Positions 2,136-27,516 of a stretch of DNA of 64,000 bases are shown here, piece after piece. Position 1 is the stretch's first letter, and each line of letters opens with the position of its first letter. The stretch is from Escherichia coli O157:H7 str. 2011EL-2287 (GTDB lineage: Bacteria; Pseudomonadota; Gammaproteobacteria; Enterobacterales; Enterobacteriaceae): assembly GCA_000614405.2 (NCBI GenBank), contig GCA_000614405.2_3612.1. The stretch is one strand, 5' to 3'. The translations under genes were made by a program, and so were the position numbers. The notes beneath the pieces were generated by a model, which did not search any database, had not been told where the DNA came from, and was given only the letters and a program-made list of their open reading frames with translations.

Positions 2136-4565
2136 ATGAGCATGTGGTCGTTCGACTTTGAGTCATCCGGTTTGCTGGAAGACCCAGATCTTTATTATCA
2201 CTGCGGCCTGTTTAAAGAGCTGAATAAGAACCGTTTTATGCTGTTCCTTCCTCTAAATGACCGCACACACTACTCCGAGGAGGATATAGAAAAGGCTAAG
2301 AACTTCATTCTGGCAAAGAAAACTCTTTATAAAGATTTTGAAGTTCGCATAGCAGATTTTTCAGAGTTGGAAGGTTGGCTTACAGGAAATTCTGACTGGT
2401 CACCAACAGCTTTGAACTGCCATAACTGCTACAGTTATGACTTTATGCTGATGGAAAGATTATCTGGTATTCATTTTGATATGTTCCGTGATCCTAAATG
2501 TATGGGGACTATCAACGATCACCAGGTTAACCTGTTTGATACGTTGGCGATGAGCCGAATCTTGTGGCCTGATCGCCCTTTACCAAAAGGTTGTCCGGAC
2601 TCTGTATTCAACCCGGTTACTAAGAAAATGCAGCCTGTTGGTCCTCACGGCCTTATGGCATGGGGCTACGCCCTTGGTAACCAGAAAGTTCAAATTGATG
2701 ACTGGCGCGATCTTCCGTTATGGAAGTATGTGGATCGTGTATTTGAGGACGTTATCATCCAGGAGCTGCTCTGGAAAGAGCTGGTAGCGGAATCAAAAGG
2801 TGTATTCTACGGCAAATCTGACATGCAGAACTTTATGTACGATCCTGCCAAAGAGAAGCCGAAAGGGTTCAAGAAGATCACCTGGAAGAACGCATTACGT
2901 CGAGGCATGTTGCAGCACTTCCTGATGGAGCTGCAGGCCCGTCAGGGTGTATACTTCGACATAGATGGAGCTATTGCTTTACGTGACCGTTGCGATGCGT
3001 GGATGAAAGAAATCGCTGATCGTGTTGAACCACAACTGCCTTTAAAAGAGCTGTTAATGTCTCAGCGGCCCAAGTTCCCTGAAAAGCCGTTTAACCAAGA
3101 TGGGACAATCTCTAATAATGGTTGGAAATGGTTAAAAGATAAGCTTGGCTATCCTGTGGACATGAGTGCTTTAGAGTTCAAAGCCCCACCTAAGCGAGCA
3201 TTTACCTCTACAGGAGATGTCAGTAAGATGGGGATAAAATGGTGTGAAGAGATGGGCTGCAAAGACCACGATAAGATGGCTGATTTCTTGAGAGGCTATA
3301 TTAAGGGCACCTCCACACCACAACCTTTACCTAAAGAGCTGATGGATCAGGCAATAAGCGATCTGCAGCAGAAGCGAATGCCTGACTGCAAGATACCTAT
3401 GAAAATCAGCAATCAGGACGATATTAAGCGATACCTGATCAGTGCTGGTTGGCTTCCGACAATGTGGAGAACTAAGGATGTAACTAAAGACAGCAAGAAG
3501 AAAGCTTTACCTGATGCAGATGTTGATGCACGAGTATATGCATATATGGACGAGCTTTTGGAGTCAGAGTATTGTGACCTAATTATCAACTTCTGGAACA
3601 AAACTGATGCTAAGTTCCAGACAACCGTGCACAAGTTCCGAAGCTTTCCTAACTCCGAAAGGATTAAAAAGGAAGTATTCGGGAAAATACGTAGAAAAGC
3701 TAGGGCACTTATTACTTCTCCGCAACTGAAAGATACGTTTGGACACCTGTGTCCGAATCTTGAAAAATTGAACGGAGAGATGGCTAAAGATATCGTCTTA
3801 TGGTTATCATTGCGAAACCGCAGATCGGTCCTTGATCCACTCAAGGAGGATAAGGTTGACACTGGTCTTCTTAATCACCCACGCTTGAAGATTGACCATA
3901 AGCTTCCTGCTAAAAGTTCTGGGCTAACAAACACTTCCAGACAGAAACACAGTATTTGTGCAAACATGCCTAAACCATCTCCTAAAGTGGTTATGGGTAA
4001 AGAGATGCGTAGTCTATGGGGTGTTCCTCCGGGATACTTTGAGATCGGTATTGACGGGTCCAACTTAGAGCAGCTTATCGGAGCTTGGGGTGCCTTTGAG
4101 TTCGACAACGGCTTGTATTATGATGTTGTAAGTAACGGGGACGCACACCAAAACAATGCTGAGGCATATACAAAAGTAGCAGGTAGAGAGGTGTCTCGTA
4201 ACGACGGTAAACCTATCACGTATGGGGTTATGTACGGGGCACAAAAAGATAAAGTTGCAGACATGCTGGATATCTCTCCAGAGTTGGGACAAAGGGTAAT
4301 CGATGCACTCTGGGATGCCAACCCTGGTCTTAAGGGGCGCAAAGAGGATCTGGAGAAATTCTGGGAAGCAACAGGTAAGAAGTTTATCTACTCTTTTGAT
4401 GGTCATGCTATCTGGACCCGATCTAAACACTCTTTACTTAATGCATACCAACAGAATGGTGGTGCATCGCTGTGTGACTTAGTTGGGATACTCATGCACC
4501 ACCAAATGGTGAAGCGTGGGTGGTACGATGAAGGTGTTCGTCGTATTATTTATTACCATAAATAA
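2136..4565 (+). CDS. DNA polymerase, family A, exon 1 (3'-5' exonuclease domain plus polymerase motifs A and B); ORF as read stops 2 codons into an intron, true exon end about 4559
   Basis: Exo I FDFESSG; motif A IGIDGSNLEQL; motif B RNDGKPITYGVMYG; ends ...RRIIYYH exactly at the His of motif C (HDE); SD AAGGAG upstream. Confidence 0.88.
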   Translation: MSMWSFDFESSGLLEDPDLYYHCGLFKELNKNRFMLFLPLNDRTHYSEEDIEKAKNFILAKKTLYKDFEVRIADFSELEGWLTGNSDWSPTALNCHNCYSYDFMLMERLSGIHFDMFRDPKCMGTINDHQVNLFDTLAMSRILWPDRPLPKGCPDSVFNPVTKKMQPVGPHGLMAWGYALGNQKVQIDDWRDLPLWKYVDRVFEDVIIQELLWKELVAESKGVFYGKSDMQNFMYDPAKEKPKGFKKITWKNALRRGMLQHFLMELQARQGVYFDIDGAIALRDRCDAWMKEIADRVEPQLPLKELLMSQRPKFPEKPFNQDGTISNNGWKWLKDKLGYPVDMSALEFKAPPKRAFTSTGDVSKMGIKWCEEMGCKDHDKMADFLRGYIKGTSTPQPLPKELMDQAISDLQQKRMPDCKIPMKISNQDDIKRYLISAGWLPTMWRTKDVTKDSKKKALPDADVDARVYAYMDELLESEYCDLIINFWNKTDAKFQTTVHKFRSFPNSERIKKEVFGKIRRKARALITSPQLKDTFGHLCPNLEKLNGEMAKDIVLWLSLRNRRSVLDPLKEDKVDTGLLNHPRLKIDHKLPAKSSGLTNTSRQKHSICANMPKPSPKVVMGKEMRSLWGVPPGYFEIGIDGSNLEQLIGAWGAFEFDNGLYYDVVSNGDAHQNNAEAYTKVAGREVSRNDGKPITYGVMYGAQKDKVADMLDISPELGQRVIDALWDANPGLKGRKEDLEKFWEATGKKFIYSFDGHAIWTRSKHSLLNAYQQNGGASLCDLVGILMHHQMVKRGWYDEGVRRIIYYHK

Positions 4566-4835
4566 CATTGTGGCTTCATAGAGTAATCTATGTCGAATAA
4601 CCTCTTTAACTGCGGGAAGCCTAAACCTTATGGCAAGGTAATCCGCAACGAAGCGCTCAAAAGAGCGAACGCTCAGAGGCCATTCCGAAAGGAAGTAGAC
4701 CAGCAAGTGCGGTCGAAATGGGAGGATTCCTGTGGTTGCTTATCATAGGAATATGAGATGGTCCGATCCTACGTGAAAACGTATGGCTATGCACGTAATG
4801 GTGCGGGGTAGCTTAACGACCTACCTGAACTATTG
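4560..4835 (+). ncRNA. putative group I self-splicing intron (no homing endonuclease ORF) interrupting the DNA polymerase gene
   Basis: 276-nt gap between pol exons; preceded by U, ends in G; contains AACUGCGGGAAG and AAUCCGCAAC resembling group I P/Q core elements; flanking exons restore YYH-DEY (motif C). Confidence 0.6.
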
Positions 4836-13145: not shown

Positions 13146-13740
13146 TACTTGAAAATTCCTGGCATATCAAGTATAAGGGGGATTTCTAAAATGGATTTCC
13201 TCCTTTTGATATTTCACCGGGCCGGATATTTTAAAATTCTTAGAAAATCAGAAAATGGATCGAAAACTAAAATGGATTTTTCAGAGTAGGCGCGACAAGC
13301 TGAATAACTCATCCTATCGTTTGCACCATATTCCAGACCACCATTATAGATTTCCCGCACATGCTTACATCTCGCTACTAGAACTTCCTCCACTTACCCT
13401 TGACCTTTTATAGCAATAATCCAACCACTATCTTGAAGTTGCGGTGCAGCTTTCCAGGTACTCGATCTGTTTTTCGTTTCAAAGATTGAATTTTCTGAAA
13501 ATTTTTCTCGATAAATTTCTCAGTACTCGATCTGTTTTTCGTTTTCTGAATCGGATTTTCTGGAAATCGCTCCGGCTCTTGGCCTAAACTTTTTGGGGAC
13601 GAAATCGATTTTTCGTTTTCAGAAATGGATTTTTAAAATTTCTATATGGGAATATTTTAGTGGATACTATTTTATAGGAAATTGTTACGGAGGGTAATTA
13701 GCGTGCTAATTAAATTTATTAAATGCGAGGAGTTCTCATT
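13146..13740. repeat. ORF-free AT-rich region with iteron-like direct repeats (candidate replication origin or control region)
   Basis: AAAATGGAT(T) motif at least 4 times; 22-bp direct repeat GTACTCGATCTGTTTTTCGTTT twice (about 13459 and 13523); GATTTTCTGGAAA-type repeats; no ORF with SD. Confidence 0.5.
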
Positions 13741-13748
13741 TAGAATTT

Positions 13749-13766
13749 TGAATGATAATCATTCTC
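13749..13766 (+). promoter_or_regulatory. Fur-box-like operator 1
   Basis: TGAATGATAATCATTCTC, about 15/19 match to GATAATGATAATCATTATC consensus. Confidence 0.4.
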
Positions 13767-13865
13767 GTTTGCAGAATAACGGGCAGGCCCGGTGATTGTC
13801 TCCCGGCCCCTACTGCCCCGGCTTGTTATTATAGTAACACACAGGACAAAGAAAGCAAGAAGTTT

Positions 13866-13902
13866 TTGCATAAATTTTTAGACGATAATGATAATCGTTC
13901 TC
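13866..13902 (+). promoter_or_regulatory. sigma70-like promoter (TTGCAT-N18-GATAAT) overlapped by Fur-box-like operator 2
   Basis: GATAATGATAATCGTTCTC is 17/19 to Fur consensus and overlaps the -10 hexamer, the classic Fur-repressed architecture. Confidence 0.45.
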
Positions 13903-14164
13903 ATTTCATGCAGCGCCCATCCCCGGTGGTTGTCTCCCCCGTCACCGGTGCCTGCCGTCCTTTCGATAGGTATATTTTGCCACCTGGCGGGGCCGCTGTC
14001 AACACTTTTCAAAAAAAAAAATTTCTAACCTGATGCGCTGACCGCTGCAACCTGGCGGGGCCAGCCTGGCAGGGCCTAACTGACCAGGTAGGAGAGAATG
14101 AAGGCTTGCAAACCTGGTGGGCCTATGCTATAGGATAGGTAACAATTGAAGAGGAGGTACAAAA

Positions 14165-14341
14165 ATGGAAGGTAATATGATCCCCCTGGAAAATGTAGCT
14201 ATTAATGACGCTGAGGCTATCGCCCTGGTTGAAAAGGCTATGGCGGGAGCGTTGGAACATAAAGAAGAGTACGAAAAAATGATGGTTAACCTGGCAGGGG
14301 CGGCGGCTGGAGAATTCTACCCAAAAAATAATTTTAACTAA
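14165..14341 (+). CDS. hypothetical small protein (58 aa)
   Basis: ORF below track cutoff; strong SD GAAGAGGAGG 7 nt before ATG. Confidence 0.5.
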   Translation: MEGNMIPLENVAINDAEAIALVEKAMAGALEHKEEYEKMMVNLAGAAAGEFYPKNNFN

Positions 14342-14344
14342 TGG

Positions 14345-14373
14345 TTGACAGCTCGGACAGTTCTTGTTATTCT
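14345..14373 (+). promoter_or_regulatory. sigma70-like promoter
   Basis: TTGACA-N17-TATTCT upstream of gene at 14429. Confidence 0.5.
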
Positions 14374-14428
14374 TATCCTCGCAAGGTGAACAACACCACA
14401 CCAATTAACAGAGAGGATAAAAAAAATC

Positions 14429-14626
14429 ATGAACGCCTACGGAATTAAAGTACGTCGCAACACTCGCCAGGTGGTCACCAATCAAGTGATTTGCCGGGTG
14501 GATGTAACCATCAACAACGGGCAAGGCCTTTATAAATTTCGTCGCGGTCATAGCTATACCCTGCAACAGCTTAACCGTTGCGCCCTGACAAAAGGTCAGA
14601 TCAACCACTGGTTTAATAAAAAATAA
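14429..14626 (+). CDS. hypothetical protein
   Basis: ORF with SD GAGAGGA and own promoter. Confidence 0.55.
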   Translation: MNAYGIKVRRNTRQVVTNQVICRVDVTINNGQGLYKFRRGHSYTLQQLNRCALTKGQINHWFNKK

Positions 14627-14628
14627 TG

Positions 14629-14657
14629 TTGACATATGGTCTGACACAAAATACACT
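14629..14657 (+). promoter_or_regulatory. sigma70-like promoter
   Basis: TTGACA-N17-TACACT upstream of gene at 14690. Confidence 0.5.
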
Positions 14658-14689
14658 GAAATCGCAAAAGACACTAAGAGGATAAAATC

Positions 14690-15088
14690 ATGAAAACCAC
14701 TACCTTTAATTTTGATAATGCGGACTTTTCTTTTTCTGATGTCAAGAACTGCCGCCGTGATCGTGGATTTTACAAGGCTTATAATCTGGTGGGCCTGGAC
14801 GATGACAATAATTTGCACGAAGTAGCTGAGATCCGGTATTATGCCGCCGCCAGTGGTAACACTCACTACTGCGTGTTTTGGATTCACGACAACAAGAACA
14901 ATAAGTACGGTTATACTGGCGGCAAGGCGAGCGGTCACGGTTACGATAAAGCTAACGCAGCACTTGAGAGTGCATTAAATGCTATGGGGATCACTGCCGA
15001 CGGCTGGATCTACGAAGAAGAGTTTTTGTCGGCACTTGCTGACCACCTGGGCTATAAAAAGCACATTGTGACATGCGCCCACGAATAA
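14690..15088 (+). CDS. hypothetical protein
   Basis: ORF with SD AAGAGGA. Confidence 0.55.
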   Translation: MKTTTFNFDNADFSFSDVKNCRRDRGFYKAYNLVGLDDDNNLHEVAEIRYYAAASGNTHYCVFWIHDNKNNKYGYTGGKASGHGYDKANAALESALNAMGITADGWIYEEEFLSALADHLGYKKHIVTCAHE

Positions 15089-20423: not shown

Positions 20424-20552
20424 GGCGTTACAACGGCCTCCAAGGCGCTTAAAAATTTTTTAAAGAAGTACTTGCATCAAGCCCTACAATATGGATAATA
20501 GTACGTGTCAGGGGGCGGCCCCCAATCATTAACAGAAACAGGAGTTAAAACT

Positions 20553-20837
20553 ATGGCTATTGTTACCGCTGGCGATGTAGTAGAAATGGAAGCAAAATAC
20601 TTAAAAGCGGGTATGCATATCCTGCGCAACGATCTTGAACTGGTCTTGACAATGGTTGACTATAACCCAGGGCAAGATTATCCAAGTGTTGACTACTTTT
20701 TTGAGTATGTTGATGAAGAGTTGAAAGAGGATGAGGCCTATTGCGGTGAGTTCTGCAACTTCTTTTGTCCTGATGAGGTTGTAAAGGTTATCTATCAACC
20801 TGGCGTAGCTTTCCCGCTGCACGCTATCAATAAATAA
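20553..20837 (+). CDS. hypothetical protein
   Basis: ORF with SD ACAGGAG; upstream TTGCAT-N16-GATAAT promoter and GGGGGCGGCCCCC hairpin. Confidence 0.55.
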   Translation: MAIVTAGDVVEMEAKYLKAGMHILRNDLELVLTMVDYNPGQDYPSVDYFFEYVDEELKEDEAYCGEFCNFFCPDEVVKVIYQPGVAFPLHAINK

Positions 20838-20899
20838 ACCTGGCGGGGCCGAAAAGGCCTCCGCCTGAAATTATGAAAAATAAAAAGAGGCAAACTATC

Positions 20900-21130
20900 A
20901 TGATGGAACAAATTAAACGCGCTGAGGCTATTAATGGCAATGTGATCTATTTTGTCAGCAATAACGAAAAAGGCGTACCATATGCGGCGGTAATAGTACA
21001 GCCTGACGGCGATTATTGGTTTACTGTGTACGGCGCTTACTCTTTTGGGCGTCCAGTGCATGATAAAATTTTGAAAGTAGCGAACCCTACCGGGAAGAAT
21101 ATCACAGCAGAAAAATTTTTTGAAAAATAG
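20900..21130 (+). CDS. hypothetical protein
   Basis: ORF with SD AAAGAGG. Confidence 0.5.
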   Translation: MMEQIKRAEAINGNVIYFVSNNEKGVPYAAVIVQPDGDYWFTVYGAYSFGRPVHDKILKVANPTGKNITAEKFFEK

Positions 21131-21185
21131 TTGACATGGCCTTATAAGACTGTAGAATATAAATCAAAGGGGGCAACAAGCCCCA
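21131..21185 (+). promoter_or_regulatory. sigma70-like promoter followed by leader stem-loop
   Basis: TTGACA-N16-TAGAAT, then GGGGGCAACAAGCCCC hairpin and CACAAAGAGGA leader. Confidence 0.55.
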
Positions 21186-21210
21186 CCAACCACAAAGAGG
21201 ATAAAAAATC

Positions 21211-21390
21211 ATGGCTATTATTGCAAAGACTGAGATCGTAGGCTTAGATTCTATTCTCCTCGCATATGAGGAAGCTATAGAAATGTATGTGGTTTCCTAT
21301 GGTGAATATATCCGTGAATATAAATCTATTGATCTGGCTTTTGAATGTTATATTCGCCAGGTTAATAAAGCGTACGATGATTATCGTTAA
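21211..21390 (+). CDS. hypothetical protein (59 aa)
   Basis: ORF below cutoff; SD AAAGAGGATAAAA; own promoter. Confidence 0.5.
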   Translation: MAIIAKTEIVGLDSILLAYEEAIEMYVVSYGEYIREYKSIDLAFECYIRQVNKAYDDYR

Positions 21391-21480
21391 AATAGCTTGA
21401 CAACAAACAACCATCTAACAAAGCATAATACATAAGGCGGTGGAATGGTCCGCCACCTGGAACAAGAAGAGGAAAACAAG

Positions 21481-21585
21481 ATGAAACAGAAATTAATTGA
21501 TGCGGTGATCCTGGTTATTGCCCTGGGTATTGGCCTGATTGCAACCATGTCTAATATGATCTTGTCTTCCAACGGTATCGGGTGA
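21481..21585 (+). CDS. hypothetical small membrane peptide (34 aa)
   Basis: ORF below cutoff; SD AAGAGGAAAA; hydrophobic. Confidence 0.4.
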   Translation: MKQKLIDAVILVIALGIGLIATMSNMILSSNGIG

Positions 21586-21594
21586 GGTTGGCAA

Positions 21595-21810
21595 ATGATC
21601 ACTAACAAAACAGGCAAAACAGAATTTTTACGCAACTTACAGATCGGCAAGCCTGAGATCTGGTATTGCACTAAAACACCACGTGACGAAATGAAAGACT
21701 TCACCGCCACGCTGCAACGGGTAAAGATATCCATCACGCAGAAAAAGGCCTTATTAGTGGTGGAAGGTGAGATCCCCCAAACCGTTGTTATAGTTGAGCG
21801 TACAGCATAG
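21595..21810 (+). CDS. hypothetical protein
   Basis: ORF with SD GAGG upstream. Confidence 0.5.
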   Translation: MITNKTGKTEFLRNLQIGKPEIWYCTKTPRDEMKDFTATLQRVKISITQKKALLVVEGEIPQTVVIVERTA

Positions 21811-21901
21811 TTTAATTTATACCGATACCCGAAAATTAACCAACAAAGCATAAACAGGCGGTTACCGCCGCCTTAAACGTAGCAGAAAGAGGATAGACAC
21901 A

Positions 21902-22186
21902 ATGAAAAAGATGATCGCAGCGGTTGCCCTGGTTGTTGGACTTAATGCGCCTGTAATGGCTAAAGAGCTGGCAAAAGAGGTTAATCTAACGGATATTCAT
22001 GCCGTCAATCAAATCGGGGTTACTTATCGCTTATGCCTTGCCGCTAAAACTTTCCAGGACGGCACGACAGAGTACTACGGATTCGAGGGTATCCGGTGCG
22101 GTGAGCTTGCTCGCGACCTTAAGGAAGATCCAGACCTGGAAGATCTGCCCATCACCGTAAACGGTAAAGCTTACGTAAACCGTTAA
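21902..22186 (+). CDS. hypothetical secreted or periplasmic protein
   Basis: ORF with SD AAAGAGGA; N-terminal signal-peptide-like MKKMIAAVALVVGLNAPVMA. Confidence 0.55.
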   Translation: MKKMIAAVALVVGLNAPVMAKELAKEVNLTDIHAVNQIGVTYRLCLAAKTFQDGTTEYYGFEGIRCGELARDLKEDPDLEDLPITVNGKAYVNR

Positions 22187-22188
22187 CC

Positions 22189-22323
22189 ATGAGAAAGATA
22201 ATCATCACCTTGGGGATTGTGGCGGGATCGCTGGCGCTCTTTCCCATTATGGTTAGGTATGTGCTGATCAGTATTGTCCTGGTAGTCAGTGATCTATTGG
22301 AAACGGTTGGCACCTTGTTTTAA
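22189..22323 (+). CDS. hypothetical small membrane peptide (44 aa)
   Basis: ORF below cutoff immediately after upstream stop; hydrophobic; weak SD. Confidence 0.3.
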   Translation: MRKIIITLGIVAGSLALFPIMVRYVLISIVLVVSDLLETVGTLF

Positions 22324-22342
22324 AGAGCGATAAAAAAAAAAA

Positions 22343-22534
22343 ATGAATGTCGAACAAGTTAGAAAGGTATTGGCGGTACTGCGTTATCATAATCATAGAA
22401 AGGTCATAGACGATCCTGATTATGTCGATTCAAACCTGGAAGAGGATACACTACAAGCCATAAGTAACATGCAAGAATTGCTAAAGCGCATGACAGAGAA
22501 AAACCGACCGGACTACATAGGCGAAAAAATATAA
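22343..22534 (+). CDS. hypothetical protein
   Basis: ORF. Confidence 0.45.
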   Translation: MNVEQVRKVLAVLRYHNHRKVIDDPDYVDSNLEEDTLQAISNMQELLKRMTEKNRPDYIGEKI

Positions 22535-22549
22535 TATTTATAAACTACA

Positions 22550-22580
22550 AAACAGGGCTTGCAATGGTCCTGTTTTTTGT
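22550..22580 (+). terminator. rho-independent terminator
   Basis: CAGGGC-loop-GTCCTG hairpin followed by TTTTTTGTT. Confidence 0.65.
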
Positions 22581-22744
22581 TATACTTATTCCACGGCAGG
22601 CACCTGGCGACGGGGGAGACAATCACCGGGCCTGCCTGTCATATAAGAACTATAAAAACCGTTGACATCTGCCATGGGGTGGGGTAACATTTATCTTGAA
22701 GGGGCAAAAGTGCCCACACAACACCCAGGAGAGAGGAAAACATT

Positions 22745-23017
22745 ATGTCAAGCTGGATTAATCAAGAAGTCGAATCACGTTTTAATGCTATATGGGATCT
22801 CATCGAAAAAGAGGACGGAACATCAAGCCCCTACCTCAACAATTTGGAATTCCATTTTGTGGAAGCGATGAACGCAGAACATGATCACGAAGGTGGCGCA
22901 GATGAGTTCGCTAAAGGTTATGGCTTTAACAATGCCAACGAAATGATCGAGGCGGTAGTACTCCAGGCTGAGGAAGATTATCAATTAAAAACGCTTGAAT
23001 TCTGCCGCCGTAAGTAA
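22745..23017 (+). CDS. hypothetical protein
   Basis: ORF with SD AGGAGAGAGGAAAA; upstream TTGACA promoter and hairpin. Confidence 0.55.
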   Translation: MSSWINQEVESRFNAIWDLIEKEDGTSSPYLNNLEFHFVEAMNAEHDHEGGADEFAKGYGFNNANEMIEAVVLQAEEDYQLKTLEFCRRK

Positions 23018-23077
23018 TAAGATAATGACACGGGCCAAAAGGCCCACTAATCAGAACCACACAAAGAGAGAAAGAAA

Positions 23078-23296
23078 ATGACAACCCGTAAAATTAAAGT
23101 TGTTTGCATTGAATCGACTGGGGGCGCTTTTGTAGTTGGTCAGGAATATAATGCGGTTTTAATGGGTACGGATTGGAAGGTTAAAGGCCTTAATGGTTAC
23201 GAGTACGGCACTACTTGCGGCTTGCGTGGTCGAATCGGATACGTGAGTTTAGACAATAAAGAAAAATTTGTTTTCGACACCCTTGTGAGTAAATAG
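23078..23296 (+). CDS. hypothetical protein
   Basis: ORF with SD AAAGAGAGAAAG; GGGCCAAAAGGCCC hairpin in leader. Confidence 0.5.
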   Translation: MTTRKIKVVCIESTGGAFVVGQEYNAVLMGTDWKVKGLNGYEYGTTCGLRGRIGYVSLDNKEKFVFDTLVSK

Positions 23297-24246: not shown

Positions 24247-25156
24247 TCTGATCTTCCCCCTACCATAAACGGCCCTACCTGGCAAGTGGAATAATTGACG
24301 AGCCATCAACCCCACACACTGTACAAATATACATGGAAAATAACTATTGCATAATTTTTCATTGTGTGGTAGCAAGTCCATTTTTACCCGTTTTCTCTCC
24401 CAAAAGTGCACGTAATGCCGCTATTGCACAAATTTTAACCTGATGCACATCTCCAATATCTTGTCAACAACTAAAAATCTTTATAAGTCATACACTTACA
24501 CAGCATCGAAAGCGTGTTCTACGCGAAAAATCGAGTATAACTATAGCCGCCAGATCTCAGAATTCACGTACGCACGCCATTCTATAGCCTGCAAAGTATT
24601 TATTCCAACCACAGAATAACGGAATAGTCAATACCTGCATAAAATAATTATTCGTGTAAACTGCATAACATAAATCAGCTCAGGTGTCAACATTTTTCGT
24701 AAACAGTCCGAAATTATCACGATGAGTTATCATAAACAGAGAAATCTTTAGTCGTCTAATGTTTACTGTACATTACTATATTGACTGGAATCATTAGATG
24801 ACTAATAGAAAGATAAGAAATAATTAACAATACAATTATTTTATCTGTAACAATAAGGCAACTATGCAAACGAATGGCATGGCGCGACGGAGTCGCGACA
24901 TAATATAAAAGCAGTAACCATCACCCCCGTGATAGTTTGTCTGCAATCTATTAATCAGATCATAGTTGCCTTGTATTTAGTTAATCATGACATAACAAGC
25001 AAGGCAACTATAGATCTGCTAATAGTTGCCCTGCTTTTATATTATGTCATAGAAACACCCGAAGGGGTGACCAAAGGTCACCTGGCATAGCCAGTGAAAT
25101 ATTGTAAACAAGTTAATTATTGTCATGCAAACGAATGGCATGGCTTATCATCTCTG

Positions 25157-25350
25157 TGTAAACAGTTTGTTTGTAAACAGTTTATACGTGAACAGTTAAC
25201 TATGTAAACTATTGAGAATGTAAACAGTAAAGGAAGTGAATAGTAAGCGAGTGAATATTAATAGCGTGAATAGTGACAGCGTAAACAGTCAGGCATGTCA
25301 ATTAAGTCTAAAGTGTCAAAGGTGTCATATTATGTCACCATTATGTCAGA
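25157..25350. repeat. array of short degenerate tandem direct repeats (GTAAACAGT / GTGAATAGT units, then TGTCA units)
   Basis: About 9 units of GT(A/G)AA(C/T)AGT at 12-17 bp spacing, then about 6 TGTCA repeats; no coding potential. Confidence 0.6.
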
Positions 25351-25609
25351 CAAGTTTTTCTCCTCTTTGTCAAGTGCTGCATGAAAATTTACAATCTGGT
25401 ATGGTAGCATTTTTGCGGCCCTGTTTACATTCAGTTGTGTATGTATAAGCCTTGTTGTGTGGGCGTTTAGACGTCTAGACGGTTGGAAGTCTACAGGTCA
25501 ATATCTAATCTATTGGTTGCTAACTATATCCCACACAAATAGTAAGAAATATAATTGTTATGTGTGTAAACTGTAACTCATGTTATCAATCCCTGTATGG
25601 ATCGCCAGT

Positions 25610-25637
25610 GGTGCGCATAATGGGTATTATGTTAAAT
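25610..25637 (+). other. dif: dif-like XerC/XerD site-specific recombination site
   Basis: GGTGCGCATAA-TGGGTA-TTATGTTAAAT: both 11-bp arms identical to E. coli dif as recalled, 2 differences in the 6-bp central region. Confidence 0.7.
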
Positions 25638-26765
25638 TGCCCGTAATGATAACAGTTCTCACAATGATAGGTATTCTCATTCACCCCACAAGATAGGTTG
25701 CAAATGTTGTGCCACTGTGTGAACGGCCTCACCTATTAATTTGCCTCACTGCCTCGATATTTGAGAATTATTATAAGAATGAGAAGTATTCCCATTCCGT
25801 CCGCCTGGCAGCACTCCTGTCGGTCAGGTCAAAATCGTGGTAGAATTGGGCCTATTCAGATATTTCTGGCTGACTCTTCAGGTCTGTGTGGGAAAAGCCA
25901 ACCTCTCCGGCGGGGCAGGGGGAGGTCAATTAAAAAATTTACGTGGTGTATGAAGCGCTCTTCAGGTAAGGCAGGTATTATGGGATGAAACCCTCTTCAG
26001 GCAATGATATTTGTGGGTGTGATATTTGCTGGAAAGCCAGATATGACGGGACTCCCGGCGGGGCAGGGGTAGTACAGACAGGGAAAATATGGGGATGTAG
26101 TTGGGTGAATTGATCGGGCAGGTAGAGTATGGAATATGTTACAAGTATGTTAAATATGGAGGTTGAATATCTGTAGGATTTGTGTGTAAAATCAAAGACT
26201 TAAGGGGTGTTGTGGTATTTTCTATAAATAATTCAAGTTTAATAGGCAATATTTGTCTCTATCCGCTTTGTGTGGTAAACAGATTCAGATTAGATTGGTT
26301 TACAAGTGTATACATAATATACAAATTAAAGATACAAGAAACCCCCCTCCCCCCTTCGGCTACCATTCACCTTTTCCTCTGACTGGTACTTAAACACTTA
26401 TTCAGACTCTTCAGGTTATCACCCATATATCATATGGCAGTGACTGGTGTCCTCCGGCCCCTCTTTCGTCACCCGTCCGCTTCGCCATGCTAATGCCATA
26501 GCTAATGGTTCGGTTGTTCACCCTGTTCACTCAGGTGTATCTCTATACCCCTTCAAACCGAAGAGAACAGAAAACCCGAATTACTCGGTAAAAGAAAAGA
26601 GAAGAACTTAATTTTATCAGGATAGGCAAGAATGTCAAGGCATGACTGCTCACTAAACAAGCAAACAGTCATGTGTGGGAGGTAAGTGATTGTGGTGGTA
26701 GGAAATTTAGTTGAAAGATGTGTTATAGGTGCTTCCAGCACTTTAGCCGGGCAGCTAATTGTGTG

Positions 26766-26981
26766 TCAGTCCAGCGGTTCATCCTCTACTTCACTGAAAT
26801 CAATGTTCATGGTCTCTTCCCAACCATCGATCTCAGCACAAGAGTGGAGTTCTTTAGGGTTTACTCCCAAAGCCTCAGCAACAGAGTCTATATTTAACAC
26901 CTCTGGCAGGTATGATTCATCGAATTCAAGGTAAATCAGGCCACGAGTGTTGTCAGCTCCACCAAATATTTCTATCTTCAT
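26766..26981 (-). CDS. hypothetical acidic protein
   Basis: ORF; last gene of the minus-strand transcription unit. Confidence 0.5.
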   Translation of the reverse strand: MKIEIFGGADNTRGLIYLEFDESYLPEVLNIDSVAEALGVNPKELHSCAEIDGWEETMNIDFSEVEDEPLD

Positions 26982-27102
26982 AAAATCTCCTCTGGGAATG
27001 AAAGTGTGAACAGGGTTTTATACGTTCTAATGCACAGGAATTATACACGTTTGCCTCTTCAGGCCATGCTTTAGCATGAGGAACCTGTGTGGGCTCGGTG
27101 CT

Positions 27103-27516
27103 TCATAGTCTACCACCTCTGAACTCTTCGTGCTCAGGCATAATAGAGAACCAGATATCTACGATGTCCTCCCACGTCAGGTCATCAGCCTCAGGATCTG
27201 TCTGGGACGAAGATGAAGAGTCCTCAGAATCTAAGTTTTCCTCTTTAACTGGCTCATCCAAGGGACATATGGTCACTCCTTCGGATGTCTCTTCAGATGC
27301 ATGTGTGTTGATCATGTTCCACCCGTGAGTATTCCGGCAACAGCCGCTATGGAAGTAATGATCATCAGGATCACCACTAAAACTTCGGACAATGTTCTCA
27401 TTGTGTATTCCATATTCTCCAAATGATGTGTGGATATTATCACTGGAGCGGCAATGTGTCAACAGAAACGCCGCGAGGGTTTGGTTAAAATCCGAGCGTA
27501 TGGTGATTTGGGTCAA
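27103..27516 (-). CDS. hypothetical acidic protein (start uncertain; internal ATG at 27315 has better SD)
   Basis: ORF; Ser/Asp/Glu-rich. Confidence 0.4.
   Translation of the reverse strand: MTQITIRSDFNQTLAAFLLTHCRSSDNIHTSFGEYGIHNENIVRSFSGDPDDHYFHSGCCRNTHGWNMINTHASEETSEGVTICPLDEPVKEENLDSEDSSSSSQTDPEADDLTWEDIVDIWFSIMPEHEEFRGGRL

Follow-up and report, generated by a model that had tools for sequence, protein, structure and literature searches.

Fur boxes are familiar from bacterial promoters and also occur at a few prophage toxin genes, and the Fur operators of enterobacteria (e.g., fepA-fes, fepB-entC, fecI, and iucA) conform to a 19-bp consensus and a 7-1-7 inverted repeat, often with several sites adjacent or overlapping. 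Classically, such an operator lies over the −35 or −10 of its target promoter. Boxes of the same type were found in the 64,000-nucleotide stretch of DNA analyzed here (the window; from Escherichia coli O157:H7 str. 2011EL-2287, assembly GCA_000614405.2), which is the genome of a Vequintavirus (rV5-like myovirus, a lytic coliphage). They lie near 13.8 kb, within a gap free of open reading frames (ORFs; 13146-14164), and appear to form part of a cassette composed of a predicted σ70 promoter, an element of ~32 nt, and putative Fur operators. In contrast to host Fur sites, the phage boxes follow the only conserved promoter at a distance of 50-150 bp, are mostly spaced in a 29-bp phase, and belong to a virulent phage. 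An earlier reading of this stretch (hereafter the original prediction) had proposed two Fur operators, each followed by a conserved element, with iron-regulated small RNAs or regulatory leaders as possible products.

Other described systems share parts of this arrangement. A Fur box accompanied by a short noncoding stretch is also characteristic of RyhB, PrrF, and the stx1 promoter, and the Fur-regulated stx1 promoter of Shiga-toxin prophages provides a precedent for a phage-borne Fur operator. Unlike these, the phage cassette has no Fur box over its conserved promoter, no canonical intrinsic terminator, no Rfam match, and no conserved fold, and its host is infected lytically. Operators downstream of the transcription start, several of them in series, are found both in the phage cassette and in roadblock repression (PurR at purB, CcpA, CodY, and the experimental lac repressor); in contrast to those repressors, a roadblock by Fur is here purely a prediction, and we know of no description of this mode for Fur. 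The cassette is likewise reminiscent of the promoter-early stem-loop (PeSL) cassettes of T4-type phages, which are repeated modules of early promoter and GC-hairpin found in either orientation and subject to recombination: three copies are present in two orientations, with a predicted promoter at each, embedded in a terminator at copy 3, and a deletion between cores is seen in the relative AlexBoehm. However, T4-type phages are an unrelated family and PeSLs have no sequence similarity to the rV5 cassette, which has an invariant 32-nt element and Fur operators; the lack of a sequence relationship makes this an analogy rather than membership. Within the same subfamily, the pseudo-ToxI repeats of the rV5-like phage ΦTE are a functional noncoding locus (PMC3475682), but they mimic a type III antitoxin and are unlike the cassette in sequence and logic; nothing similar beyond GGTGATT was seen between the element and the ToxI repeat. 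No report of Fur sites or iron regulation in rV5-like phages, or of Fur boxes in strictly lytic phages, was found in the searchable literature. Fur operators on mobile elements are known, and their phased, promoter-downstream placement in a conserved virulent-phage cassette appears to be new.

When compared with the 19-bp Fur consensus (GATAATGATAATCATTATC), the site at 13884-13902 matched at 17 of 19 positions and that at 13748-13766 at 15 of 19, as originally predicted and above chance: shuffled sequences are expected to yield 0.02 matches at ≤3 mismatches, and at ≤4 mismatches the window contains four sites (0.3 expected), two of which are the boxes designated 1 and 2 here (Table 1). An exact 16-mer (AATGATAATCNTTCTC) is common to both boxes, at 13751 and 13887, and the two box-plus-element units constitute a tandem duplication of 134-136 bp. 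A degenerate box precedes box 1, with five mismatches in 21 positions to the consensus of the phage boxes, and occupies the −70 position at which a second box is located in other genera. The remaining motifs of the original prediction were likewise all present at, or a few bases from, the places it had assigned to them.

Outside Vequintavirus, the only part of the gap still aligning in a sensitive search, which yielded about 250 homologous regions, was 13748-13806, i.e., box 1 and the element. The aligning taxa comprise Mydovirus (Proteus and Klebsiella phages), Certrevirus (Cronobacter and Pectobacterium), Seunavirus (Salmonella), Phapecoctavirus (phAPEC8 and ukendt), unclassified Vequintavirinae (W70 and ABPH49), and one Aeromonas phage; arrays of boxes adjoin the element in Vequintavirinae, Stephanstirmvirinae, and the Aeromonas phage. 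The number of boxes per locus ranged from one to five by scan, and up to ~6 by eye in the phAPEC8-like contigs L133 and L137, with two to three good boxes per genome in Vequintaviruses. In nearly every lineage, the start of the proximal box at the 13.8-kb site precedes the element's GGTG by 41-43 bp, and additional boxes follow at −70, −99, and then −128 or −137, mostly at 29-bp spacing. Fur-like matches elsewhere in the homologous loci were few and weaker, such that the boxes cluster upstream of the element on the strand shown. Relative to window 13797-13930, AlexBoehm (L145) carries an exact 134-bp deletion from core 1 to core 2 that leaves one hybrid cassette. The junction falls inside the shared core (GGTGA|TTGTCTC), the mark of homologous recombination between tandem cassettes; the cassette behaves as a modular, recombining unit, and AlexBoehm shows that the phage can do without one copy.

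The specificity of the boxes was examined with a matrix built from 34 distinct 21-mers of 14 phage lineages, with no E. coli data in the model. The consensus of these sequences, AAATGAGAATCATTCTCATTT, is a 7-1-7 palindrome in which GAGAAT is commoner than GATAAT. When K-12 positions 600000-649999 were scanned, the top four matches (17.2, 17.0, 13.8, and 13.3 bits; next 8.0) were intergenic: two lay between fepB and entC, one between fepA and fes, and one between fepD and entS. At positions 4490000-4539999, the scan was led by a match of 22.7 bits at the fecI promoter and one of 16.7 bits between fecR and fecA, followed by a match of 9.4 bits. The fepB-entC, fepA-fes, fepD-entS, fecI, and fecA sites are established, classical Fur operators. 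The fecI operator (ATATGAGAATGGTTATCATTA) differs at only two of 21 positions from the copy-3 box of Cronobacter phage CR8. Recovery of known E. coli Fur operators by a phage-only matrix supports a Fur-type identity of the boxes, and they are very probably Fur-type operators under selection in this phage group; together with the cross-genus arrays, this favors the original reading of them as Fur operators.

A second cluster of Fur-like boxes was observed at 25644-25797 (TAATGATAACAGTTCTCACAA at 25644, CAATGATAGGTATTCTCATTC at 25662, and GAATGAGAAGTATTCCCATTC at 25777), with scores of 12.7-22.1 bits (median of shuffle maxima ~12). This cluster is located in a larger ORF-poor region (~24620-27500) that also contains the repeats CTCTTCAGG and CCGGCGGGGCAGGGG, and its conservation is limited to Vequintavirus. 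Several GenBank records of related phages start or stop within a few hundred bases of ~25560-25860 (e.g., bov10K2 at base 1; HdK5, YN3, ECP2309, and A13b near their last bases), and physical genome ends or terminal repeats may fall in this second noncoding region.

The element adjoining the boxes is conserved in sequence rather than structure and reads, on the opposite strand, GAGACAAWCACCGGnnCTGCCCGYTATTC. Its 17-mer CCCGGTGRTTGTCTCCC occurs exactly three times in the window (0.14 expected), at 13788-13804 (+), 13922-13938 (+), and 22614-22630 (−), and a profile search of the 64 kb (nhmmer) returned these three copies only. Copy 3 is inverted with respect to copies 1 and 2 and lies within a hairpin, as the original prediction had noted; it has the same direction as the early genes, and no Fur box is present there in the window. 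In an exact-pattern scan of one genome per species across 185,579 bacterial species, only five matches were found, all in unrelated metagenome-assembled genomes and taken as chance-level, which indicates a phage-specific element; a host origin was rejected on the same grounds. A scan of IMG/VR with the 16-mer returned mostly one chance match within prophage coding sequence. One 22-nt identity to copies 2 and 3 (CCCCGGTGATTGTCTCCCCCGT) was observed at 461-482 of an unrelated IMG/VR phage contig (L092), where it is intergenic, in the gene direction, and after a TATAAT, with no notable fold; nothing in the phage collection is related to this contig, and the match may be real. By eye, the element did not fit a site for IHF, CRP, FNR, IscR, MntR, σ54, or σE/FecI or a T7 promoter, and its likeness to the fecA promoter is confined to a wrongly spaced GATTGTC.

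On the strand opposite to that on which the element was originally read, each of the three window copies has a predicted σ70 promoter. In most lineages, such a promoter is found with a score of 9-10.5 of 12, as compared with a chance rate of ~0.12 per 113 nt. The distance from the end of the −10 to the core is 25-30 nt in 12 of 17 cassettes. In all of these, the −10 retains A2 and T6, which was a condition of the scan. Hexamers and spacing are conserved, and the spacer sequence drifts between lineages. Among close relatives, the −10 of cassette 2 is CAAAAT, CACAAT, or CATAAT, with A2 and T6 always kept. At the position homologous to the cassette 1 promoter, TTGACA-N16-TATTAT (L044), TTGCAA-N17-TATATT (CR3 and Mydo), and TTGACG-N17-CATAAT (PcCB7V) are found, and a further example on this strand is TTGACC-N17-GATAAT. 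At copy 3, the element starts 28 nt past the −10 of a promoter embedded in a terminator, in the early-gene direction. This terminator-promoter layout is also observed in CR8 (TTGACT/TATCCT) and SPLA5a (TTGTTT/TATTCT), and in the copy-3 homologs of CR8, SPLA5a, and DU_PP_I GGGGGAGACAAACACCGGACCTGCCCGCTATTCAG comes after the terminator-promoter, with one or two Fur boxes beyond it, in the gene direction. The same order at two genomic sites identifies the unit as promoter, element, and Fur boxes; the two cassette sites are in opposite orientations, ~9-10 kb apart, in at least two genera. By this comparison, copy 3 of the window is a cassette that has lost its Fur boxes.

In contrast, promoter-like hexamers that overlap the boxes are not conserved, and the conserved promoter lies 50-85 nt upstream on the other strand. 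The rightward promoter proposed over box 2, TTGCAT-N18-GATAAT, exists in the window, but its −10 is GATAAC in four of the five Vequintavirus relatives that retain copy 2. Similarly, the −10 of the copy-1 candidate TTGAAT-N18-CAGAAT is CGGAAT, CTGAAT, GAGAAC, or TAAATA in six of 17 aligned sequences, with loss of −11A or −7T, and conservation of TAGAAT does not extend beyond the genus. CAGAAT is kept in the CR8 and SPLA5a cassettes of the copy-3 type despite a 30-nt insert between the hexamer and the Fur box, indicating that it belongs to the element (GAATAGCGGGCAGG) and not to a box-spanning promoter. Any RNA carrying the element is thus most likely the complement of the one originally proposed, with the Fur boxes downstream of its start.

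A structured RNA is not supported for the conserved stretch, which is noncoding. Rfam gave no match in the window when its gathering threshold was applied; with E relaxed to 1-5, the region and six related loci likewise gave none. RNAalifold over 16 lineages yielded no consensus fold (three to four pairs on either strand), which leaves the covariation envisaged for the element unsupported. Folding z-scores of the 16 cassettes averaged −0.85 on both strands and, being equally weak, cannot assign a strand; local hairpins occur in every copy, with partners and register varying by lineage. No canonical intrinsic terminator was found after either 13.8-kb copy on either strand. The small RNA or regulatory leader suggested earlier accordingly finds no support in fold, Rfam match, or canonical terminator: for a Fur-repressed small RNA of the RyhB/PrrF type, box-overlapping promoters are unconserved and both a terminator and an Rfam match are lacking, and for a structured riboswitch or leader, no conserved fold is supported by covariation. 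An ORF across the stretch starts inside box 1 (ORF 198 of the rV5 annotation and bas54_0102 of that of MaxBurger), with no Shine-Dalgarno before its ATG. It meets a stop at codon 8 in Mydo and codon 24 in SSE121, and translated similarity (tblastn) extends to all frames of both strands and is confined to the same ~60 nt. A protein-coding gene was rejected on these grounds (frame not kept, similarity in all frames, and no Shine-Dalgarno), in agreement with the original description of the stretch as noncoding.

The order of the parts, the phased series of operators that a polymerase would encounter, and the absence of a conserved promoter under the boxes are the basis of a roadblock model, in which the locus is an iron-sensing cassette (promoter, leader element, and downstream Fur operators) and Fur would block elongation from the conserved promoter. 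We advance this model tentatively, as one with something short of an even chance of being correct. Each cassette (two in tandem at 13.8 kb and a third at 22.6 kb, its boxes apparently lost) would carry, on the opposite strand, a σ70 promoter, the element ~20 nt past the start, and then one to five Fur operators, mostly in 29-bp phase. In iron-replete cells, Fe2+-Fur on operators in the polymerase path would block or attenuate elongation (i.e., roadblock repression), and serial operators would withstand polymerases that arrive in trains; under iron starvation, transcription would continue past them. The 13.8-kb transcript would proceed leftward into an 18-bp palindrome and AT-rich iterons (Table 1), and that of the copy-3 site rightward toward the next early genes, with the net effect that part of the early program would be coupled to host iron status. 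Fur binding, promoter firing, and the stopping of elongation by bound Fur are all predicted from sequence. Given the conservation of the cassette across a group of phage genera, it is probable that these phages monitor cellular iron status or interfere with it.

Several observations weigh against the roadblock model. The boxes start ~50 nt (13.8-kb copies) or ~85 nt (copy-3 type) past the predicted start, a downstream placement that is, to our knowledge, not an established mode of Fur action. The copy-1 promoter is weak in this genus (TTGCTT-N19-TATAAT), and promoter-like hexamers do overlap the boxes in this genome (ATTAAA-N17-TAGAAT and TTGCAT-N18-GATAAT). Copy 3 of the window keeps promoter and element without a Fur box, which argues for a role of the element independent of Fur, and neither a conserved ORF nor a terminator was found for the leftward downstream product. 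A variant in which Fur assists termination at the hairpin was not adopted, since the polymerase would still enclose the hairpin's 3′ arm. More broadly, it is conceivable, if on balance doubtful, that a large group of virulent enterobacterial phages represented in therapy collections (Vequintavirinae, Stephanstirmvirinae, and related phages) recruits host Fur via phased, near-consensus operators, either to gate early transcription or the adjacent origin-like region by iron or to soak up Fur; in such a reading, the element would be the binding site of some partner.

Among the alternatives, the original prediction corresponds to a model in which Fur occludes rightward σ70 promoters (TTGCAT-N18-GATAAT at 13866-13895, and TTGAAT-N18-CAGAAT or ATTAAA-N17-TAGAAT at box 1), and iron starvation would switch on short RNAs or an early-gene leader from 14165. 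An RNA with CCCGGUGRUUGUCUCCC could then pair with copy 3 in the rightward early transcript, consistent with the perfect complementarity of copies 1 and 3 over 17 nt, with the inverted pair ~9-10 kb apart in two genera, and with several stem positions that are G-U on the plus strand and A-C mismatches on the other. Overlap with a promoter is the canonical Fur arrangement, and the hexamers under the boxes in this genome make such control possible for this lineage. We nevertheless consider this model unlikely, in view of the drift of all three −10 hexamers, the insert that parts CAGAAT from the box in CR8 and SPLA5a, the lack of a canonical intrinsic terminator, and plus-strand folds (z −0.2 and −0.9) no better than shuffled. 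The same lack of any promoter consistently overlapping the boxes would fit a Fur sponge, whereby the hundreds of copies of a replicating genome titrate the few thousand Fur molecules of the cell, derepressing host iron uptake and RyhB. Iron would thus be supplied to iron-dependent phage enzymes such as ribonucleotide reductase, and the adjacency of promoter and element would be inherited linkage. Titration by multicopy Fur boxes is established (the Fur titration assay, FURTA), most host sites depart further from the ideal palindrome than the phage boxes do, the boxes vary in number (one to five, up to ~6 by eye), and a second cluster lies in the other gene-free region (25644-25797). However, pure decoys would need neither the exact distance of the proximal box to the element nor the 29-bp phase, Vequintaviruses have only two to three good boxes per genome, and host transcription may be off by the time of high copy number, all of which make a sponge improbable.

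A further possibility is that the boxes are not Fur operators at all but sites of a phage-encoded dimeric regulator, or part of an origin or packaging architecture that includes the iterons, with a convergent likeness to Fur sites. They do adjoin iteron-like repeats and GATC-centered palindromes in an AT-rich, gene-free region, GAGAAT is preferred over GATAAT in the phage consensus, and they are placed, with respect to promoters, in a way unusual for Fur sites. In contrast, the matrix ranked known Fur operators first in both K-12 regions, by a wide margin over 100 kb, and the fecI operator is very close to the CR8 box. The motif is moreover kept in phages of Escherichia, Salmonella, Klebsiella, Cronobacter, Pectobacterium, Proteus, and Aeromonas, seven host genera whose Fur boxes are alike, and no GC-skew switch accompanies the region at 13.5 kb; a non-Fur identity is quite improbable.

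Should host Fur bind, rV5-like phages would sense or manipulate iron, the most limited nutrient in the gut and infected tissue, where these phages are meant to work. Such binding would predict iron-dependent differences in burst size, timing, or host takeover. A role would likewise be assigned to the "empty" but conserved 1-kb region, now filled by annotators with spurious ORFs, and the cassette points to a conserved 32-nt element with a putative ligand.

Table 1. Features of the cassette sites and neighboring repeats in the window.
Feature	Position	Strand	Sequence and remarks
Degenerate Fur box	13721-13741	none	AAATGCGAGGAGTTCTCATTT; 29 bp from box 1; 21.7 bits
Fur box 1 (proximal operator)	13750-13770	none	GAATGATAATCATTCTCGTTT; 30.0 bits with the phage-box matrix
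Fur box 2	13886-13906	none	TAATGATAATCGTTCTCATTT; 30.8 bits with the phage-box matrix; in the tandem second cassette copy
Element copy 1	13773-13810	-	GGGAGACAATCACCGGGCCTGCCCGTTATTCT on the minus strand; nhmmer E=2e-11; kept across genera
Element copy 2	13908-13944	-	17-mer at 13922-13938; E=5e-6
Element copy 3	22608-22645	+	17-mer at 22614-22630; hairpin 22595-22636; E=1e-9
Cassette 1 promoter (predicted)	13828-13858	-	TTGCTT-N19-TATAAT; weak in this genus
Cassette 2 promoter (predicted)	13974-14002	-	TTGACA-N17-CAAAAT, TG before −10; 10/12
Terminator hairpin with embedded promoter, upstream of copy 3	22549-22586	+	−35 TTGCAA 22559-22564 in the loop; −10 TATACT 22581-22586 after the T-run
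Promoter of the original prediction	13866-13895	+	TTGCAT-N18-GATAAT; overlaps Fur box 2; candidate for this lineage only
GC-rich repeats TGC(C/A)ACCTGGCGGGGCC	13978-13994, 14046-14062 (span 13982-14076)	+	Variant at 14064-14076
Three AT-rich repeats, ~52 nt, iteron-like	13451-13641	none	Contain GTACTCGATCTGTTTTTCG; past the Fur boxes in the leftward direction
18-bp palindrome	13695-13712	none	TAATTAGCGTGCTAATTA; leftward of the Fur boxes

The gap that contains the 13.8-kb cassettes is flanked by rightward early genes, and the flanking genes (10 of 10) have no known function in Pfam or PHROGs. Over 13400-14700, identity to Escherichia phages bov10K2, MaxBurger, rV5_ev168, and PDX is 96-99%. Annotators disagree on the gap, which is either left empty or given mutually inconsistent small ORFs; the map in the rV5 genome paper marks a "non-coding" box, with no discussion accompanying the map (PMC3606486). 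Between 16 and 18 GenBank records named "Campylobacter phage" (host C. jejuni) show 96-99% identity to E. coli rV5-like phages in this region, and the host label C. jejuni on those records looks doubtful. The AT-rich repeats to the left of the boxes look like protein-binding iterons, possibly of an origin, and other genera have equivalent repeats with GATC-centered palindromes (e.g., CTCGATCGAG). A replication origin at the gap was rejected, as no GC-skew switch was found at 13.5 kb; the sole switch, at ~27-28 kb, tracks gene orientation.

To the right of the cassettes, the 13-mer ACCTGGCGGGGCC occurs exactly at 13982, 14050, and 20838, with a two-mismatch variant at 14064 (six matches at ≤2 mismatches, as compared with 0.56 expected). 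The recurrence of this motif was part of the original prediction and is upheld at these three positions, whereas the copy placed at ~14112 is a 12-nt variant only (ACCTGGTGGGCC). The third exact copy (20838-20850) lies within an intercistronic hairpin, and both 17-mers, TGC(C/A)ACCTGGCGGGGCC, are also present in the diverged relative L044. At the corresponding position in CR3 (L125, ~1640-1720; also L123, L124, L126, L148, and L149), a very conserved GC-rich block, CTACCGGCGATCCACCTTCC...GGTATGTTAGCCCCGCCTTTnCGCCGTGGGGTGGCG, was observed where the window has the ACCTGGCGGGGCC repeats. This block and its equivalents are preceded by a TTGCAA-N17-TACAAA promoter and two CTTTACA repeats and have no Rfam match; the block may serve the rightward early genes as a leader RNA. 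Within 20500-23100 of the window, most early genes have a TTGACA-type promoter, a short GC hairpin at the 5′ end, a CACAAC-rich spacer, and a Shine-Dalgarno, a repeated cassette organization that is also reminiscent of T4 PeSLs. Finally, a group I intron was detected at 4550-4785 (+) of the window (Rfam RF00028; 64.7 bits, E=4e-14).

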